Sequence record: MF327008
DNA from: Shigella phage Sf24
Reading direction: 5' to 3' (one strand)
Length of the DNA: 64,000 nt
Positions within the stretch are counted from its first letter, which is position 1, and each line of letters begins with the position of its first letter. Shown here one piece after another: positions 9,862 to 61,303 of this stretch. The translations under genes were made by a program, and so were the position numbers. The notes beneath the pieces were generated by a model, which searched no databases, was not told where the DNA came from, and saw nothing but the letters and a program-made list of their open reading frames with translations.

Positions 9862-10464
9862 TTATAGATTAAATCCTTCAAAATCAAGAGTATAGATAGT
9901 GTATGTTGAATACTTTTTGTACTCATATCTATCTGCAATTCTAAATACACTTCCAGCCGGTATCATTACTTCTTGTTCATCTGAAACTAATTCCATATTA
10001 CGATAACGATGGCTATCCGGAAACTTAAAGTTTGGATTGTATTCTTTACAGCGTAGAGCTTTTATAGCATACTCCTGGAAATTGAATACCATAGGAGCTT
10101 TGAATTCAAAAATAACCTGTGTGTTATACTCTAAACCGGAAGCAAAATGTAGAGCTATATTTTTATCATATGAAGCTGATACGACTTTATCAAATGTAAT
10201 AATATCAATTCCTTGATTTAATACTTGCTTAGTCTCAGCTGGAACACCTCTCCAAAGAGGTTTATCGTTTGGAACCAAACGAGATTTGATTATTTCATTT
10301 AACCAAGTATGGTCATCTGGCTTATTAGTAATACAATGAATTAAAAGTTCAATTTCAGATAAATTAAACCCTTCAGAAAGCAATTCTTCACGAATAGAAG
10401 CACGCACCGATGCATCCATTGATTTTATTTTAAAATCTTTTAGTTGCATTACTGAGTATTTCAT
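9862..10464 (-). CDS. modA: ADP-ribosyltransferase ModA
   Basis: 200 aa, adjacent to the 207-aa ModB paralog, T4 order. Confidence 0.8.
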   Translation of the reverse strand: MKYSVMQLKDFKIKSMDASVRASIREELLSEGFNLSEIELLIHCITNKPDDHTWLNEIIKSRLVPNDKPLWRGVPAETKQVLNQGIDIITFDKVVSASYDKNIALHFASGLEYNTQVIFEFKAPMVFNFQEYAIKALRCKEYNPNFKFPDSHRYRNMELVSDEQEVMIPAGSVFRIADRYEYKKYSTYTIYTLDFEGFNL

Positions 10465-11084
10465 TCAACTACCTCAATATCATAAACTTTAAATGTTCCA
10501 AATGAATCGTGTAATTTTTCTTTTGAAATAGAAGTTATTTTATACTTTCCAATTGGAATCATCCATTCTTGTTCATGCACAATCATCATTAAGTTATCAG
10601 TACGCTCTGAATCTAATCCATCAGTATCTTCATATGTATACTTAAACTCAGTATTAGGAGAAGAAAGTATAATATCGCTGATATGGTCAGAATAATTAAA
10701 AGCTTTATCAGTTTTTAAACGAAGTATTGTTTCAGTGAAATATTCAGCATAAGAAAAAGAACACGCTGTATGCAAACTAGTAGTAAATGAATCTACTCTG
10801 TTCGTTGAAAACACTTCTCCAACTTGTAAATCTTTAATAAGTTCTTTTGTCGATTTTGATATACCACGATATAATTGATAAGGCGATTTAGTTAAATGCT
10901 TTTTAATGATTTTATTCAACTGTCTGTGAAGAGCTTCATTCTTTTTGGCTTCCATACATTGCCAAAGAACAGACTGCTCAAAGTCAGTAAATTTTTCACA
11001 GACTTTTTTATACATATCATATTGAAAATCAACGCTTTCAGCTTTTATAGATAACTGTTCAACATCTGCAGGATTAATAATCAT
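10461..11084 (-). CDS. modB: ADP-ribosyltransferase ModB
   Basis: 207 aa, paralog of ModA. Confidence 0.8.
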   Translation of the reverse strand: MIINPADVEQLSIKAESVDFQYDMYKKVCEKFTDFEQSVLWQCMEAKKNEALHRQLNKIIKKHLTKSPYQLYRGISKSTKELIKDLQVGEVFSTNRVDSFTTSLHTACSFSYAEYFTETILRLKTDKAFNYSDHISDIILSSPNTEFKYTYEDTDGLDSERTDNLMMIVHEQEWMIPIGKYKITSISKEKLHDSFGTFKVYDIEVVE

Positions 11085-56539: not shown

Positions 56540-56721
56540 AAAGAATTTATATAATCAATGAGTTCTTGTTCTTTATTATCGAATTCTTTAGAAAGTTCTT
56601 CGTATTCATTTGCATTAAAAGGACCGCATTCATCACAAACTTTTTCCAATTCACTGTTTTTATCCATAACTTCGTGGATAAGAGAAAAGAGTTTGTCTTT
56701 TTGTTCTTTGCTTAAACTCAT
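56536..56721 (-). CDS. small acidic helical protein, paralog family
   Basis: MSLSKEQKDKLFSLIHEVMDKNSEL. Confidence 0.5.
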   Translation of the reverse strand: MSLSKEQKDKLFSLIHEVMDKNSELEKVCDECGPFNANEYEELSKEFDNKEQELIDYINSL

Positions 56722-56887
56722 ATATTAATTTCCAAAAGTTTTAAAATAATTCGCTTTTGCTTAAATATTTCCACAGTTAAATGATCAGTATCTTTTTGAC
56801 CAATTCCAATGGCAAAACCTTTATTAACAGCGAGTTCAATTAAATTATCAAGTTCACGTAACACTTCATATTGTAACTCAGAACTAT

Positions 56888-57094
56888 TCATTTCGGTTTA
56901 CCTTCTTTAACGAAATCTGGATAAGGATAAAATCCCGAATAAAATCCTTCACCTTTATGATTGATGCATCCTTTATTAGAACAATAGCACCAATAATCGA
57001 AATCACAAGCCATTTCATCGTTGCATAAAGCAAAAACAACCGGCCATTTACACTTTTCACAGTGGGCATTTTTAAGAATACTAGTTTGGCTCAT
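56888..57094 (-). CDS. Cys-rich small protein
   Basis: CEKCKW...CYCSNKGC pattern. Confidence 0.45.
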   Translation of the reverse strand: MSQTSILKNAHCEKCKWPVVFALCNDEMACDFDYWCYCSNKGCINHKGEGFYSGFYPYPDFVKEGKPK

Positions 57095-57303
57095 AACCAT
57101 GTAACCTTTAAGCAATATTCTTCTACATGTTGTTTACGACCTTTCTTATCAATAAAGGTATATTCAACGAATGTCCCAATGTAGTCTTTATCTACATCAT
57201 GTGGACTATTAATTGGACATTTAGTACGGCAAATGCGTTCCCATTGACGAATAATTACTGCTTTGTTTTTAGGATCAAACGGATGTGGGTAATGCACTTT
57301 CAT
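57091..57303 (-). CDS. hypothetical small protein
   Basis: 70-aa ORF. Confidence 0.45.
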   Translation of the reverse strand: MKVHYPHPFDPKNKAVIIRQWERICRTKCPINSPHDVDKDYIGTFVEYTFIDKKGRKQHVEEYCLKVTWL

Positions 57304-57754
57304 AATCCACCACTATTAAATCAATATCAGGAGTAAACATGTCGATTAATTTAGAAACCTTATCCCAATCGCCGCCAGCAATACCACAACCTATGCGTGG
57401 AATGTAAATTACCGGTTTAAACAAAAGGGTTTCTGCCTGTAGATTTAATTCTATCATGCAGTTTACTAAAGCACCATAATCAAGATTAGGACCTGGTTCG
57501 TATTGCGTATACAGGTTATAGCATATACCAAATCCCGTAGGACTATGTTTAAAAACAATAGACATATCGCCTAATTTATCGCGAGAACCGTACTCAGTAG
57601 TGGTTTTATCTATTTCTAAAATTTTGGGATAGGCTCTGGCTAATTGACCCGCTACACCTGAACCCATAGTATGAAAACAATTGCACCCGTGCGCAATAAT
57701 ATTACCTTGAAGAAATAGGGCGACAATATCGCCCTTGATATATTTTACAATCAT
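57275..57754 (-). CDS. macro-domain protein (ADP-ribose binding/hydrolase fold)
   Basis: GDIVALFLQGNIIAHGCNC...MGSGVAGQLARAYP and IGCGIAGGDW resemble the macro-domain glycine-rich loops. Confidence 0.6.
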   Translation of the reverse strand: MIVKYIKGDIVALFLQGNIIAHGCNCFHTMGSGVAGQLARAYPKILEIDKTTTEYGSRDKLGDMSIVFKHSPTGFGICYNLYTQYEPGPNLDYGALVNCMIELNLQAETLLFKPVIYIPRIGCGIAGGDWDKVSKLIDMFTPDIDLIVVDYESALPTSV

Positions 57755-58092
57755 CTAGTACTCAATCCTCGATTATAAGAATCTACCAAACGGTCAACCA
57801 TTGAATGACAAGCGGCTTTATCTTTCTCCTCCGCAACTGAACATTCTAAGGTATTCCACTTTTTAGCATATCGTTTTAACAATGTATCATTTTTGTATCT
57901 GCTTGATTTATCTCTTTCTCCGTCTTTATATGCATATATTAATTTCTGCGCAAATTCAGCTTGGCATGCTTTATTTTTCCCGCAATAATCCGCTGCAGTA
58001 CGGTTTACATACTCTCTAATTTCAGTATATGATGTATCTGCTAACGCAGAAAATGAAATTAATCCTATACATAAAACCAAAATTTTAGTCAT
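57751..58092 (-). CDS. secreted Cys-containing protein
   Basis: signal peptide MTKILVLCIGLISFSALA. Confidence 0.5.
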   Translation of the reverse strand: MTKILVLCIGLISFSALADTSYTEIREYVNRTAADYCGKNKACQAEFAQKLIYAYKDGERDKSSRYKNDTLLKRYAKKWNTLECSVAEEKDKAACHSMVDRLVDSYNRGLSTR

Positions 58093-58630
58093 TTACTATT
58101 TCCAAAAGTTTATTATTTTTAAGGTAATTAGCCTTTTCTAGGACTTCAGAAGCATATTTAGAACCTGCTTTAACATTCCATCCCGAATTATAAGAGGATA
58201 TTGCTTTTCTTATATCGCCCTTATGTATATTTAACCAATAAGAAAGTTCAATGTACGCCCAGGAAGCTGAATTGGACCGTTTATTCAACATTCTTTTTAT
58301 TTCAGCATCGGTCATATTATAACCAAGTTCCTTAACTCTTGCTCGCATAGTAGGCAAATAATTTTGGAACATTCCGTAGGCGTGATGCTTTGGTTTAGAT
58401 TTTAAATTAACTCCGCCAGAGCTTTCTTGCCATAAAATAGCAGCCATTATATGACCTAATCCGCTCTTGTGGATATTTTTGTGTGTTTTATATTTTCCAT
58501 CCTTAGAAAATTGTTCCCCGAATTGATACGCGTAACGCATGTTATCGAGTTGGACATTACTGAAAGTATGCTCGGAGCTATGTGCCATCATTGAAATGGC
58601 CAATAGACCAGCGAGTAGTGCTTTTCTCAT
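58085..58630 (-). CDS. periplasmic lytic transglycosylase (SLT domain)
   Basis: signal peptide; motifs ILWQESSGG, AYGMFQ, SYNSG. Confidence 0.65.
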   Translation of the reverse strand: MRKALLAGLLAISMMAHSSEHTFSNVQLDNMRYAYQFGEQFSKDGKYKTHKNIHKSGLGHIMAAILWQESSGGVNLKSKPKHHAYGMFQNYLPTMRARVKELGYNMTDAEIKRMLNKRSNSASWAYIELSYWLNIHKGDIRKAISSYNSGWNVKAGSKYASEVLEKANYLKNNKLLEIVND

Positions 58631-58637
58631 GCTTACC

Positions 58638-59099
58638 TCATTGAGTTTTAATTACTGCTTTAGAAGCCTTTCCTGGTAAACGACGACTGTTGATAATTGC
58701 CATCCTGCATTGAAGTGACGGGTTTTTGAACTTCTCATTAGGCTTACAAACCGTAAATCCAAGCCAAAGATTTCCATCTGTGATTTCTAAACGTCCAGGA
58801 CGATATTCAACCCCATCAATAAAATCCTCGTCAATGTCAGGACGCGGAGGCATACTCAGGAATTCATTAACTTCTAAAACATGGTCTTTTATTTTATGGA
58901 ATAATTCAAAAACATATGTCTCATCAATCTCCCGTTGAATTGCACGATCAAGAAGATGTTGAGAATATTTTAGATGAAACGATGAGACTCCTGCTGCCTT
59001 TGATGCCTCACGAATCTCATTGTTAATTTGACGAAACTCCGACTCAAAGTGACGACGAAGCTTATTTCGACGGATAAAAACTTCTGTATTGATAGTCAT
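58638..59099 (-). CDS. regB: endoribonuclease RegB
   Basis: 153 aa MTINTEVFIRRNKLRRHFESEFRQ, T4 RegB-like. Confidence 0.9.
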   Translation of the reverse strand: MTINTEVFIRRNKLRRHFESEFRQINNEIREASKAAGVSSFHLKYSQHLLDRAIQREIDETYVFELFHKIKDHVLEVNEFLSMPPRPDIDEDFIDGVEYRPGRLEITDGNLWLGFTVCKPNEKFKNPSLQCRMAIINSRRLPGKASKAVIKTQ

Positions 59100-59126
59100 G
59101 TTATTCTCCTCTTAACTGATAGAAAA

Positions 59127-59157
59127 ATTATACCACAGTCAAGAGGAAAAGTAAACA
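59127..59157 (-). promoter_or_regulatory. T4-type early promoter upstream of regB
   Basis: GTTTAC ... TGTGGTATAAT on minus strand. Confidence 0.6.
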
Positions 59158-59158
59158 A

Positions 59159-59437
59159 TTATTCTTTAAATCTAATCAATTTATTCATAGACTTTGAAAC
59201 TTCTGCACGAACCTCATGCAAGTTTTTAAGCTGTTCAAGACGCTGTTCATAGTAAGCAATTTCATCTTCTTCGAGACAGTCCTGTGAATCTTCTTTAAGA
59301 TAACGTGCATAGTCCTGGAAAGCTTTACGGACTACTTCCTGGAAGTCATCAAGACTTTGAATTTTCTTAGGAGCAACAGATACACGACGAGGGGCAGTAT
59401 AATACTCATAACCAAACCCTGCACTTAATTGAGCCAT
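59159..59437 (-). CDS. hypothetical protein
   Basis: start likely at internal Met. Confidence 0.45.
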
Positions 59438-59703
59438 TAGTATTTTTCCTCTGGTTGGAACACTGCACGACAAGCCCACATACTGGCTTCTTTGAGTTTC
59501 GTTTTAGCAATAGTTAACTGATCGAGGCTTTCAGCATAATTCTTCGCGAGTTCATCATCTTCACAATTATCTAGTGCTTCCCAGAATTCATCGTATAAAG
59601 CGTCAAAGATAAGTCCTAAACGAACTTCAGCGTCTTTAATAGCATTCACTTTACCGATTTTCTCTTCAGTATGCGGCTTATAACCTTTAATGTCTTCAAT
59701 CAT
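59437..59703 (-). CDS. hypothetical protein
   Basis: start likely at internal Met MIEDIKG. Confidence 0.45.
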
Positions 59704-59917
59704 ATTTGACTTCCTCACCAGTACATAAATTATATTCAACTAAACGAATAGGTTCATGAATGCCATATCCTTGAACAGAAATTTCTGTTGTAGGATAAAT
59801 TCCATCAATACCACCCATATTCCATGCTTCATTAAATTGCTGTTCGCCTGAATTACTAAACCACTCGGCGAAAGCATTTAACACATCTTTAGAACCTTCA
59901 ATAATTATCTTTGCCAT
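59696..59917 (-). CDS. hypothetical small protein
   Basis: 73-aa ORF. Confidence 0.5.
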   Translation of the reverse strand: MAKIIIEGSKDVLNAFAEWFSNSGEQQFNEAWNMGGIDGIYPTTEISVQGYGIHEPIRLVEYNLCTGEEVKYD

Positions 59918-60279
59918 TACAAACTCTCAGTAAAGGTACGAGCGATAACGTCGCGCTGCTGTTCCGGAGTCAGAGAGTTAAAGCGAACTGCATAACCGGA
60001 TACACGGATGGTCAGCTGCGGATATTTTTCCGGATGCTTAACTGCATCTTCCAGAGTTTCACGACGCAGAACGTTAACATTCAGGTGTTGACCACCTTCA
60101 ATTTTAACCGTAGGCTGTGGTTCAATTTCAATTTCACGGGCATGCAAACCGTAGAAAATTTCCGGGTCTACAAAAGAGTCCTCTTTAAAGGTTTTAGAGA
60201 CAATAATTCGTGCTTGAATACCATCTTCAAAATAAATAGTACCTTTATGCGTGCCTTCAAGAATTTGATATGCTTTCAT
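59917..60279 (-). CDS. autonomous glycyl radical cofactor, GrcA/YfiD-like (T4 Y06I-like)
   Basis: C-terminus [59 protein letters not shown] with glycyl-radical motif RVSGYAV; GC-richer, host-like composition. Confidence 0.85.
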
Positions 60280-60285
60280 ATAACC

Positions 60286-60615
60286 TCAATTAGAAAATAA
60301 ATTTATCCAAGATTGTTCTTTAATTAAAAATGGCTCAGAATCATATGCCATTAAACTTTGGGTGATTAGTCCTTTAAAAGGTCCATCAATAAATTCCATG
60401 GTAAAATATGGAATTTTATTCATTAATCTTGCATTAGGAGCAGTGCACAAAACTCTGCATCCTTTGAATACGCCTTTTTGTAATTTGTATTGCTTAGGAT
60501 AAAATTCGCTCAAGACGTTGTTATTTGCCAAAATTTCAAAATGATTCACCAATTTATTTTTAATAGTTTTTGGCGAAAAATAAAGATATTCGAAAAGTTG
60601 CGTGTCTGTCATCAT
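60286..60615 (-). CDS. hypothetical protein
   Basis: start likely at internal Met. Confidence 0.45.
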   Translation of the reverse strand: MMTDTQLFEYLYFSPKTIKNKLVNHFEILANNNVLSEFYPKQYKLQKGVFKGCRVLCTAPNARLMNKIPYFTMEFIDGPFKGLITQSLMAYDSEPFLIKEQSWINLFSN

Positions 60616-61115
60616 TGCATTCCGATTATGAAAAACTGTGGACGAGTAATACCACCAATGCAACATTTAATATTACAGCAGCAGTGTACAGTGTCAATAT
60701 GGACACTATAAATCTTATCCATATCAGGAGATTTGACAGGCTCGTCAATTATATACAAAATTCGCGAAAGCGATAAACCTCTGAACTTACTTCCTTTATT
60801 ACCGATAAAACTACGGACAGAATCGGTAAATAAACGGAATCGAATATCATCGCTAGAATAACGAGAAAATTCTTTTTTAATGTGGCCTGCAGAAATTTTA
60901 GCGTAAGCTGAAGTATTAGAAAGAACAATAACTGTTCCACCGTCATACAACCAATTAGCGGCAAAATTAGTTACTGCAGTTGATTTACCAGATTGACGTC
61001 CACCATCTAGTCGAAGTGTGCAGTACTGTTTAAGTAATTCTTCAAATGGCGGGATATATTCGTTTTTACAAATTTCTTCTACTCTAGCGTCAGAATGGTG
61101 TGTAAAAGCATTCAT
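60612..61115 (-). CDS. small P-loop NTPase
   Basis: Walker A GGRQSGKST; Walker B-like IIDEP. Confidence 0.55.
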   Translation of the reverse strand: MNAFTHHSDARVEEICKNEYIPPFEELLKQYCTLRLDGGRQSGKSTAVTNFAANWLYDGGTVIVLSNTSAYAKISAGHIKKEFSRYSSDDIRFRLFTDSVRSFIGNKGSKFRGLSLSRILYIIDEPVKSPDMDKIYSVHIDTVHCCCNIKCCIGGITRPQFFIIGMQ

Positions 61116-61303
61116 CAGGATAGATAAGGACCAGTTAAAAATGTTCTCATTTTATTCTCTCTAAATTTGGGCCATTCCGTGGCGCATGAATTGTCCATTT
61201 CTGTATTTACCCATTACCGCACTCAGGCTCGACCTTATTACAGGTTGGCGGGAATCCCTCATAGAATCATGAGGTCCAGGTTGTTCCCATATTTCTTATT
61301 TGC

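Follow-up and report, generated by a model that had tools for sequence, protein, structure and literature searches.

The open reading frame at 57275..57754 (minus strand) of the window, i.e., of the whole 64,000-nucleotide stretch of DNA analyzed here, encodes a 159-aa single-domain macrodomain protein, which is identified by its Pfam Macro match, its synteny with T4 and its structural model as the orthologue of T4 tk.4 (adfM). By analogy with the T4 orthologue and with the macrodomain class, from which the mechanism is inferred, this allele probably counters DarTG2 by de-ADP-ribosylating DNA. The tk.4 gene, its macro (A1pp) domain and its anti-DarTG2 role in T4 are already known, and an identical sequence of this allele is present in GenBank. 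Modestly new are the putative Gln-type active site in a T-even AdfM, and the deeply diverged allele that recombination has placed at this locus.

That the product of 57275..57754 is a macrodomain is virtually certain. It matches Pfam Macro (PF01661) over profile positions 2-117 of 118 with 32 bits (E=1.3e-7), well placed above the curated gathering threshold of 22 bits, as well as PHROG 335 (E=1e-71), and a search of a large protein collection yields 777 homologues with E<=1e-5. The AlphaFold2 model, calculated from a 115-sequence family alignment, is confident (pLDDT 94.3, pTM 0.89) and displays the three-layer alpha/beta/alpha macro fold, with both glycine-rich loops present and conserved. 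The sequence-only reading of this DNA had called a macro domain from a set of short motifs, all of which are indeed found in the 159-aa frame: GDI at residues 8-10, the glycine-rich loop MGSGVAGQLARAYP at residues 30-43, and IGCGIAGGDW at residues 121-130. This call, and the macro fold on which it depended, are thus borne out by the Pfam match, the model and the class of the nearest neighbors. Both glycine-rich loops presumably serve to bind ADP-ribose, as they do in the class.

The genomic context leaves hardly any doubt about orthology. At the nucleotide level, the segment is 100% identical to that of Escherichia phage Kelasse, a Tequatrovirus; megablast matches it to 562 phage records, and the window is itself a Tequatrovirus. 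Gene order is collinear with T4 (NC_000866), i.e., rI.-1, rI, rI.1, tk, tk.1, tk.2, a 367-bp insertion in the window, tk.3, tk.4, vs, vs.1, and regB, and the slot of the gene between tk.3 and vs therefore makes it the positional orthologue of tk.4. The protein is 58% identical to T4 Tk.4 over 155 aa without gaps (E=1e-70), while the flanking proteins are 95-100% identical to their T4 counterparts. The upstream neighbors vs, vs.1 and regB (57751..59099, minus strand; 99-100% amino acid identity to T4, with PHROG matches) are co-oriented with tk.4, which directly follows the regB-vs.1-vs genes. The stop codon of vs and the start codon of tk.4 share an ATGA overlap (57751..57754, minus strand), read from the sequence and likewise present in T4, and translational coupling of the two genes through this overlap is likely. 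Downstream lies tk.3 (57091..57303, minus strand; 70 aa, phrog_2008, assigned by T4 comparison and PHROG), whose overlap with the 3' end of tk.4 amounts to 29 nt (57275..57303) in the window and to 4 nt in T4. The window allele is extended at its C terminus by four residues (PTSV), which also occur in the 76%-identical relative P0007. A promoter scan detected a strong sigma-70-like match upstream of regB (TTTACT-17-TATAAT with an extended -10 TG; 59127..59155, minus strand), which may serve the regB-vs-tk.4 run as an early promoter; promoter-like matches are not enriched in the region (13 vs. 14.0 in shuffled sequences).

Several features of this neighborhood are recorded as separate observations. 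The 367-bp insertion that separates tk.2 from tk.3 and is missing in T4 (56723..57089) carries two small frames on the minus strand, one of 57 aa (56718..56891; phrog_3452) and one of about 68-75 aa (56888..57115; phrog_2306), and the Cys-rich product of the latter (CxxC...C...C...C...CxC) possibly binds zinc. Codons 7-13 of tk.4 (57717..57735) contain a perfect 8-bp hairpin rich in G+C (AGGGCGAUAUUGUCGCCCU), with a U-rich run after it. The element is identical in T4, and a "terminator" is annotated under the match in some GenBank records (fPS-90, ECML-123-2); when folded, the 101 nt around it are not significantly more stable than shuffled sequences (z = -1.3). The product of vs.1 (58085..58630, minus strand) is 100% identical to that of T4, begins with a signal-like segment, and weakly matches families of lytic tail proteins and endolysins, fitting the SLT transglycosylase match reported for vs.1 in 2006 (PMC1524935).

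The connection between tk.4 and DarTG2 comes from work on T4. An A1pp domain was reported in tk.4 orthologues in 2006 (Virol J, PMC1524935), and the T4 record NC_000866 reads "Tk.4; contains A1pp phosphatase motif". In HIDEN-SEQ, a transposon sequencing approach applied to T4, tk.4 emerged as the one significant hit in hosts expressing DarTG2, and T4 became sensitive to DarTG2 when the gene was cleanly knocked out; it was renamed adfM, its likeness to the M. tuberculosis DarG macrodomain was noted, and the enzymatic step of T4 AdfM was put forward as a proposal by the authors (preprint, bioRxiv 10.1101/2025.11.20.689424). The sequence-only reading had suggested a counter to DarT-type DNA ADP-ribosylation, which matches these genetic data. 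In vitro, gp104 of the nucleus-forming phage PhiKZ, a further protein that was independently named AdfM, frees DarT2-modified DNA of its ADP-ribose, and its N23A variant is less active (PMC13309987). Reversal of thymine-ADPr is common to DarG, TARG1 and SCO6735 (PMC9411070, PMC13036486, PMC12879935), and hydrolysis of thymine-N3-linked ADP-ribose would thus be expected of a Tk.4-family protein from its class.

The resulting model is that tk.4 would be transcribed with the regB-vs block and that, upon infection of DarTG2-carrying E. coli, DarT2 would ADP-ribosylate thymidines in single-stranded phage DNA and thereby block replication. The macrodomain might then bind the ADP-ribose via its two glycine-rich loops and hydrolyze the N-glycosidic bond between thymine N3 and ribose, which would release free ADP-ribose and leave intact DNA. 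In this scheme Q84, held by N25, would position the distal ribose for a water-mediated cleavage, taking the place of the Lys that DarG and TARG1 use for catalysis. The template is SCO6735, in which an essential Gln85 is found where these enzymes have their Lys: Q85A is dead and N27S nearly so, and the mechanism proposed for it relies on water, the Gln placing the distal ribose and Asn27 locking the Gln (PMC9411070). Some observations weigh against a simple transfer of the mechanism to the window allele: the T4 protein that was tested and the window allele share only 58% identity and differ in their second loops, and PhiKZ gp104, the sole phage AdfM with in vitro data, is of the Lys-type, DarG-like lineage. 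The lack of a BT1257-like insertion after Q84 and one discordant alignment, both described below, weigh in the same direction.

The assignment to a class is clear. The nearest neighbors in both sequence and structure belong to the TARG1/DarG/SCO6735/Poa1p (ALC1-like) class, with the MacroD, viral and PARG classes clearly apart, and the model of the window protein is confidently that of a TARG1/DarG/Poa1p/BT1257-class macrodomain. In PDB searches with the window protein, BT1257 and SCO6735 outscore DarG. The PADLOC DarG model gives 27.4 bits for the window protein, 36 bits for T4 Tk.4 and 132.9 bits for PhiKZ gp104, and the NCBIfam DarG equivalog NF048014 gives 27.6 bits for the window protein, which is below its cut-off of 250; only positions 2-145 of the 329-338-position DarG models are aligned. 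The C-terminal DarT-binding domain of DarG is absent from the 159-aa protein, and no darT gene adjoins its reading frame, the neighbors being tk.3 and vs. Homology to Poa1p (E=1.6e-9) resides mainly in the N-terminal half, where H22 aligns with H23 of Poa1p and T29 stands at the position of S30, residues that are common to the whole class and hence non-discriminating.

The catalytic residues can be placed within this framework. In the 115-sequence family alignment, the residues H22, G23, N25, C26, G33, A35, D49, N80, Y82, Q84, P119 and W130 are invariant. H22 to A35 of this set belong to the first ADP-ribose-binding loop (codons 22-36, HGCNCFHTMGSGVAG; 57647..57691, minus strand), while N80, Y82 and Q84 belong to the segment NLYTQ (codons 80-84; 57503..57517, minus strand), which was placed by HMMER and MAFFT alignments. 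The second glycine-rich, diphosphate-binding loop (codons 119-130, PRIGCGIAGGDW; 57365..57400, minus strand) is, by alignment, the counterpart of the PRIGCGLAGGxW loop in BT1257 and SCO6735. The HMMER profile-to-TARG1 alignment places Q84 on the catalytic K84 of TARG1 and A126 on its D125. A MAFFT alignment of the window protein, T4 Tk.4, TARG1, BT1257, two DarGs and gp104, including sequences from solved structures, equates NLYTQ (window and T4) with NMIGQ (BT1257), YLITK (TARG1), NFPTK (both DarGs) and MFPTK (PhiKZ gp104). The column of Q84 is that of the catalytic Lys of DarG (K80), and Gln is invariant in the family, so that the Lys expected of a DarG is not found. One of the three alignments disagrees on this register: hhalign, run with the family profile against PhiKZ gp104 as a single sequence (probability 95.8%), shifts Q84 by 2 residues within a low-confidence stretch, and was set aside for the concordant HMMER and MAFFT registers. 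N25 falls into the same column as N23 of PhiKZ AdfM in the multiple alignment and would be, via TARG1, the counterpart of N27 in SCO6735. By transitivity through TARG1 K84 and the structure-based alignment in PMC9411070, Q84 would likewise correspond to Q85 of SCO6735, a correspondence supported by the Gln of BT1257. SCO6735 (5E3B) itself was aligned through the second loop alone in a single-sequence search with residues 61-159, and ranked 8th in the profile search. After Q84, the MAFFT alignment shows no insertion in the window protein relative to TARG1 and DarG, and 6 extra residues in BT1257; the mobile loop of SCO6735 exceeds those of DarG and TARG1 by five residues and aids DNA binding (PMC9411070). 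The register of Q84, the Gln85 of SCO6735 and the pattern of scores together argue that T-even Tk.4 proteins carry a Gln-type site, as do SCO6735 and BT1257, and are no orphan DarGs. On this sequence evidence, the two proteins that are both named AdfM, T4 Tk.4 and PhiKZ gp104, represent different macrodomain lineages.

The window allele of tk.4 lies in an island of divergence from T4 (57270..57726), delimited by sliding and per-gene identity. Nucleotide identity is 47-82% inside the island as opposed to 88-100% on both sides, and for tk.4 amounts to 70% over the whole gene and 47-67% in its middle. Nei-Gojobori estimates for tk.4 of the window vs. T4 are dS 1.25 and dN 0.376 (dN/dS 0.30), whereas dS of the flanking genes is 0.02-0.19. 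Rapid evolution in situ was considered as the cause of the island and rejected, with dS near saturation in tk.4 and at the stated low values in the flanks. Because positive selection in place cannot lift synonymous divergence tenfold or more, these values indicate that the window carries an old allele acquired by recombination. The first 38 nt of tk.4 and the N-terminal 13 residues are identical between window and T4, and the crossovers lie within this shared 5' stretch of tk.4 and near where tk.3 begins. Within tk.3, dS to T4 is 0.46 despite 96% amino acid identity, which suggests that the recombination tract or its edge reaches into this gene.

Overall, the window allele is under purifying selection, as judged from its dN/dS, with tight constraint in the motif segments and looser constraint at codons 46-78 and 132-155 (dN/dS near 0.5-0.8). 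Of the 48 well-conserved positions (conservation of 70% or more within the family), 47 carry the consensus residue in the window allele and 42 in T4. The two alleles differ from each other at five of these 48, none of them invariant, and the second-loop changes from window to T4 include A126G, G127K and D129N. Nothing in these comparisons points to decay of the window allele. Both allele classes are found within Tequatrovirus and are common: 311 phage records encode a protein at least 90% identical to that of the window, whereas 224 records are at least 90% identical to T4 Tk.4 and a further 159 are at 80-90%. A more far-reaching interpretation, which we consider speculative and rather unlikely, is that tk.4/adfM is an allele-exchange hotspot, at which ancient, diverged and functionally non-equivalent alleles are swapped between near-identical T-even genomes, at least two classes being maintained in the genus with comparable frequencies. 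If so, the alleles might differ in the DarT2 variants or ADP-ribose linkages that they handle (thymine in DNA, uracil in RNA, or others) or, alternatively, in whether they can be sensed or inhibited by a host system. Separately, the T-even AdfM would be a Gln-type enzyme with a catalytic mechanism other than that of the Lys-type DarG and PhiKZ AdfM.

Three other functions have to be weighed against DNA de-ADP-ribosylation, each of which might also exist as a secondary activity. The main effect on DarT2 might stem from binding of the toxin, or the protein might act on RNA by removing uracil-ADPr, in which case the divergence of alleles would reflect the tracking of toxin variants. Indeed, the dead Q85A variant of SCO6735 still inhibits DarT, and does so more strongly than the DarG or TARG1 mutants (PMC9411070), TARG1-class enzymes including SCO6735 also cleave U-ADPr in RNA (PMC13036486), and tk.4 possesses the two looser segments described above. 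However, the catalytic-site positions are all invariant across homologues down to 40% identity, which argues that catalysis, and not binding alone, is selected. Moreover, the toxin-binding C-terminal domain of DarG is missing (159 aa vs. DarG models of 329-338 positions), and the high dS speaks for an old allele and not for fast recent adaptation. We therefore regard this alternative as improbable.

Little more than a slim chance is given to the idea that the substrates are small ADP-ribose derivatives and not DNA, be it in a Poa1p-like activity as ADP-ribose-1''-phosphate phosphatase or by degrading or binding immune signals made from NAD, for instance in Thoeris. The name "phosphatase" derives from the old name of the A1pp domain and not from an assay, T4 tk.4 was a hit specifically under DarTG2 (10.1101/2025.11.20.689424), and a link of tk.4 to Thoeris or another signaling system was not found in the literature searched; in the CmdTAC paper and in the Migulavirinae/Thoeris preprint, macrodomains appear in the references or for host ThsA only, with no link to tk.4.

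T4 ADP-ribosyltransferases modify arginine, a linkage that is removed by ARH/DraG-type enzymes and typically not by TARG1-class macrodomains. It is very improbable that the protein erases the products of the phage's own Alt, ModA and ModB, thereby resetting host proteins or removing RNAylation, even though modA (9862..10464, 200 aa) and modB (10461..11084, 207 aa), tandem ADP-ribosyltransferase genes on the minus strand, are encoded in the same window, so that substrate and eraser would coexist. The macro family comprises 2788 phage records (Escherichia 971, Klebsiella 369, Salmonella 293, Pseudomonas 184, Vibrio 137, Acinetobacter 93, Aeromonas 86) and ModB homologues 1009, mostly of enterobacterial phages (Salmonella 30); given these numbers and the differing hosts, most carriers of the macro family lack a detectable Mod enzyme. 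The same distribution argues against the suggestion of the sequence-only reading that the protein regulates ModA/ModB. A bacterial homologue (Pelagimonas, 40% identity), albeit a single case, also stands alone, with neither DarT nor another ADP-ribosyltransferase as a neighbor, and fits a free-standing lineage.

The main value of the analysis lies in annotation. GenBank names tk.4 "phosphatase" or "hypothetical protein" in many records, and "Macro domain protein" in several records of the window allele, and wrong names are at times given to its neighbors; a fitting label would be tk.4/adfM-family macrodomain, probable anti-DarTG2 ADP-ribosylglycohydrolase. In the Kelasse record (MW749001, 2941..7425, corresponding to about 56700..61200 of the window), several product names look wrong: tk.3 is named "ABC transporter ATP-binding protein", vs.1 "endoribonuclease", tk.4 "hypothetical protein", and small frames of the mobD region "molybdopterin-guanine dinucleotide biosynthesis protein". 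The presence of adfM would predict resistance to DarTG2-carrying E. coli, which might be used in phage therapy and host-range prediction. Experiments could be guided by the observation that the name AdfM now spans two distinct macrodomain lineages, with Gln or Lys at the catalytic position, and by the apparent movement of deeply diverged alleles at the tk.4 locus through recombination.

Among known systems, T4 Tk.4/AdfM is the closest, with the same slot (tk.3 / tk.4 / vs), near-equal length, a single domain, and the invariant residues including Q84 and N25. It differs in that the window allele is deeply diverged from it (70% nucleotide identity, dS 1.25) amid 95-100% identical neighbors, in its second loop (GAGIGKGNW in T4, GCGIAGGDW in the window), and in the four additional C-terminal residues and the 29-nt overlap with tk.3 of the window. 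SCO6735 of Streptomyces coelicolor (5E3B) and BT1257 (2AFC/2FG1) resemble the window protein as free-standing, Gln-type, TARG1-like macrodomains. However, they are associated with protection of the bacterial genome, whereas the window protein would act in phage counter-defense; in addition, BT1257 has six residues inserted behind the Gln that are absent from the window protein, and the mobile loop of SCO6735 is reportedly longer and contains Lys.

The remaining relatives are more distant. In the DarG macrodomain (5M3I, 5M31; DarTG2), Lys80 stands where the window protein has Gln, and the window protein has neither the C-terminal DarT-binding domain nor an adjacent darT. PhiKZ gp104 "AdfM" (Cell Rep 2026, PMC13309987) is likewise a stand-alone phage macrodomain directed against DarTG2 and shares the conserved Asn (N23 in gp104, N25 in the window). 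It is DarG-like, however, with E=9e-25 to the DarG of M. tuberculosis, an FPTK Lys motif, and marginal BLASTP similarity to the window protein, and it is imported into the phage nucleus (PMC13309987). Human TARG1/OARD1 uses a K84/D125 dyad in place of Q84 and A126, and yeast Poa1p is known as an Appr-1''-p phosphatase. AdfN (T4 30.3), finally, provides a functional parallel as an orphan antitoxin-like hydrolase of T-even phages that undoes DarT damage, but its NADAR fold is unrelated, and its substrate is guanine-ADPr generated by DarT1, not thymine-ADPr generated by DarT2 (Nat Commun 2025, PMC11825919).
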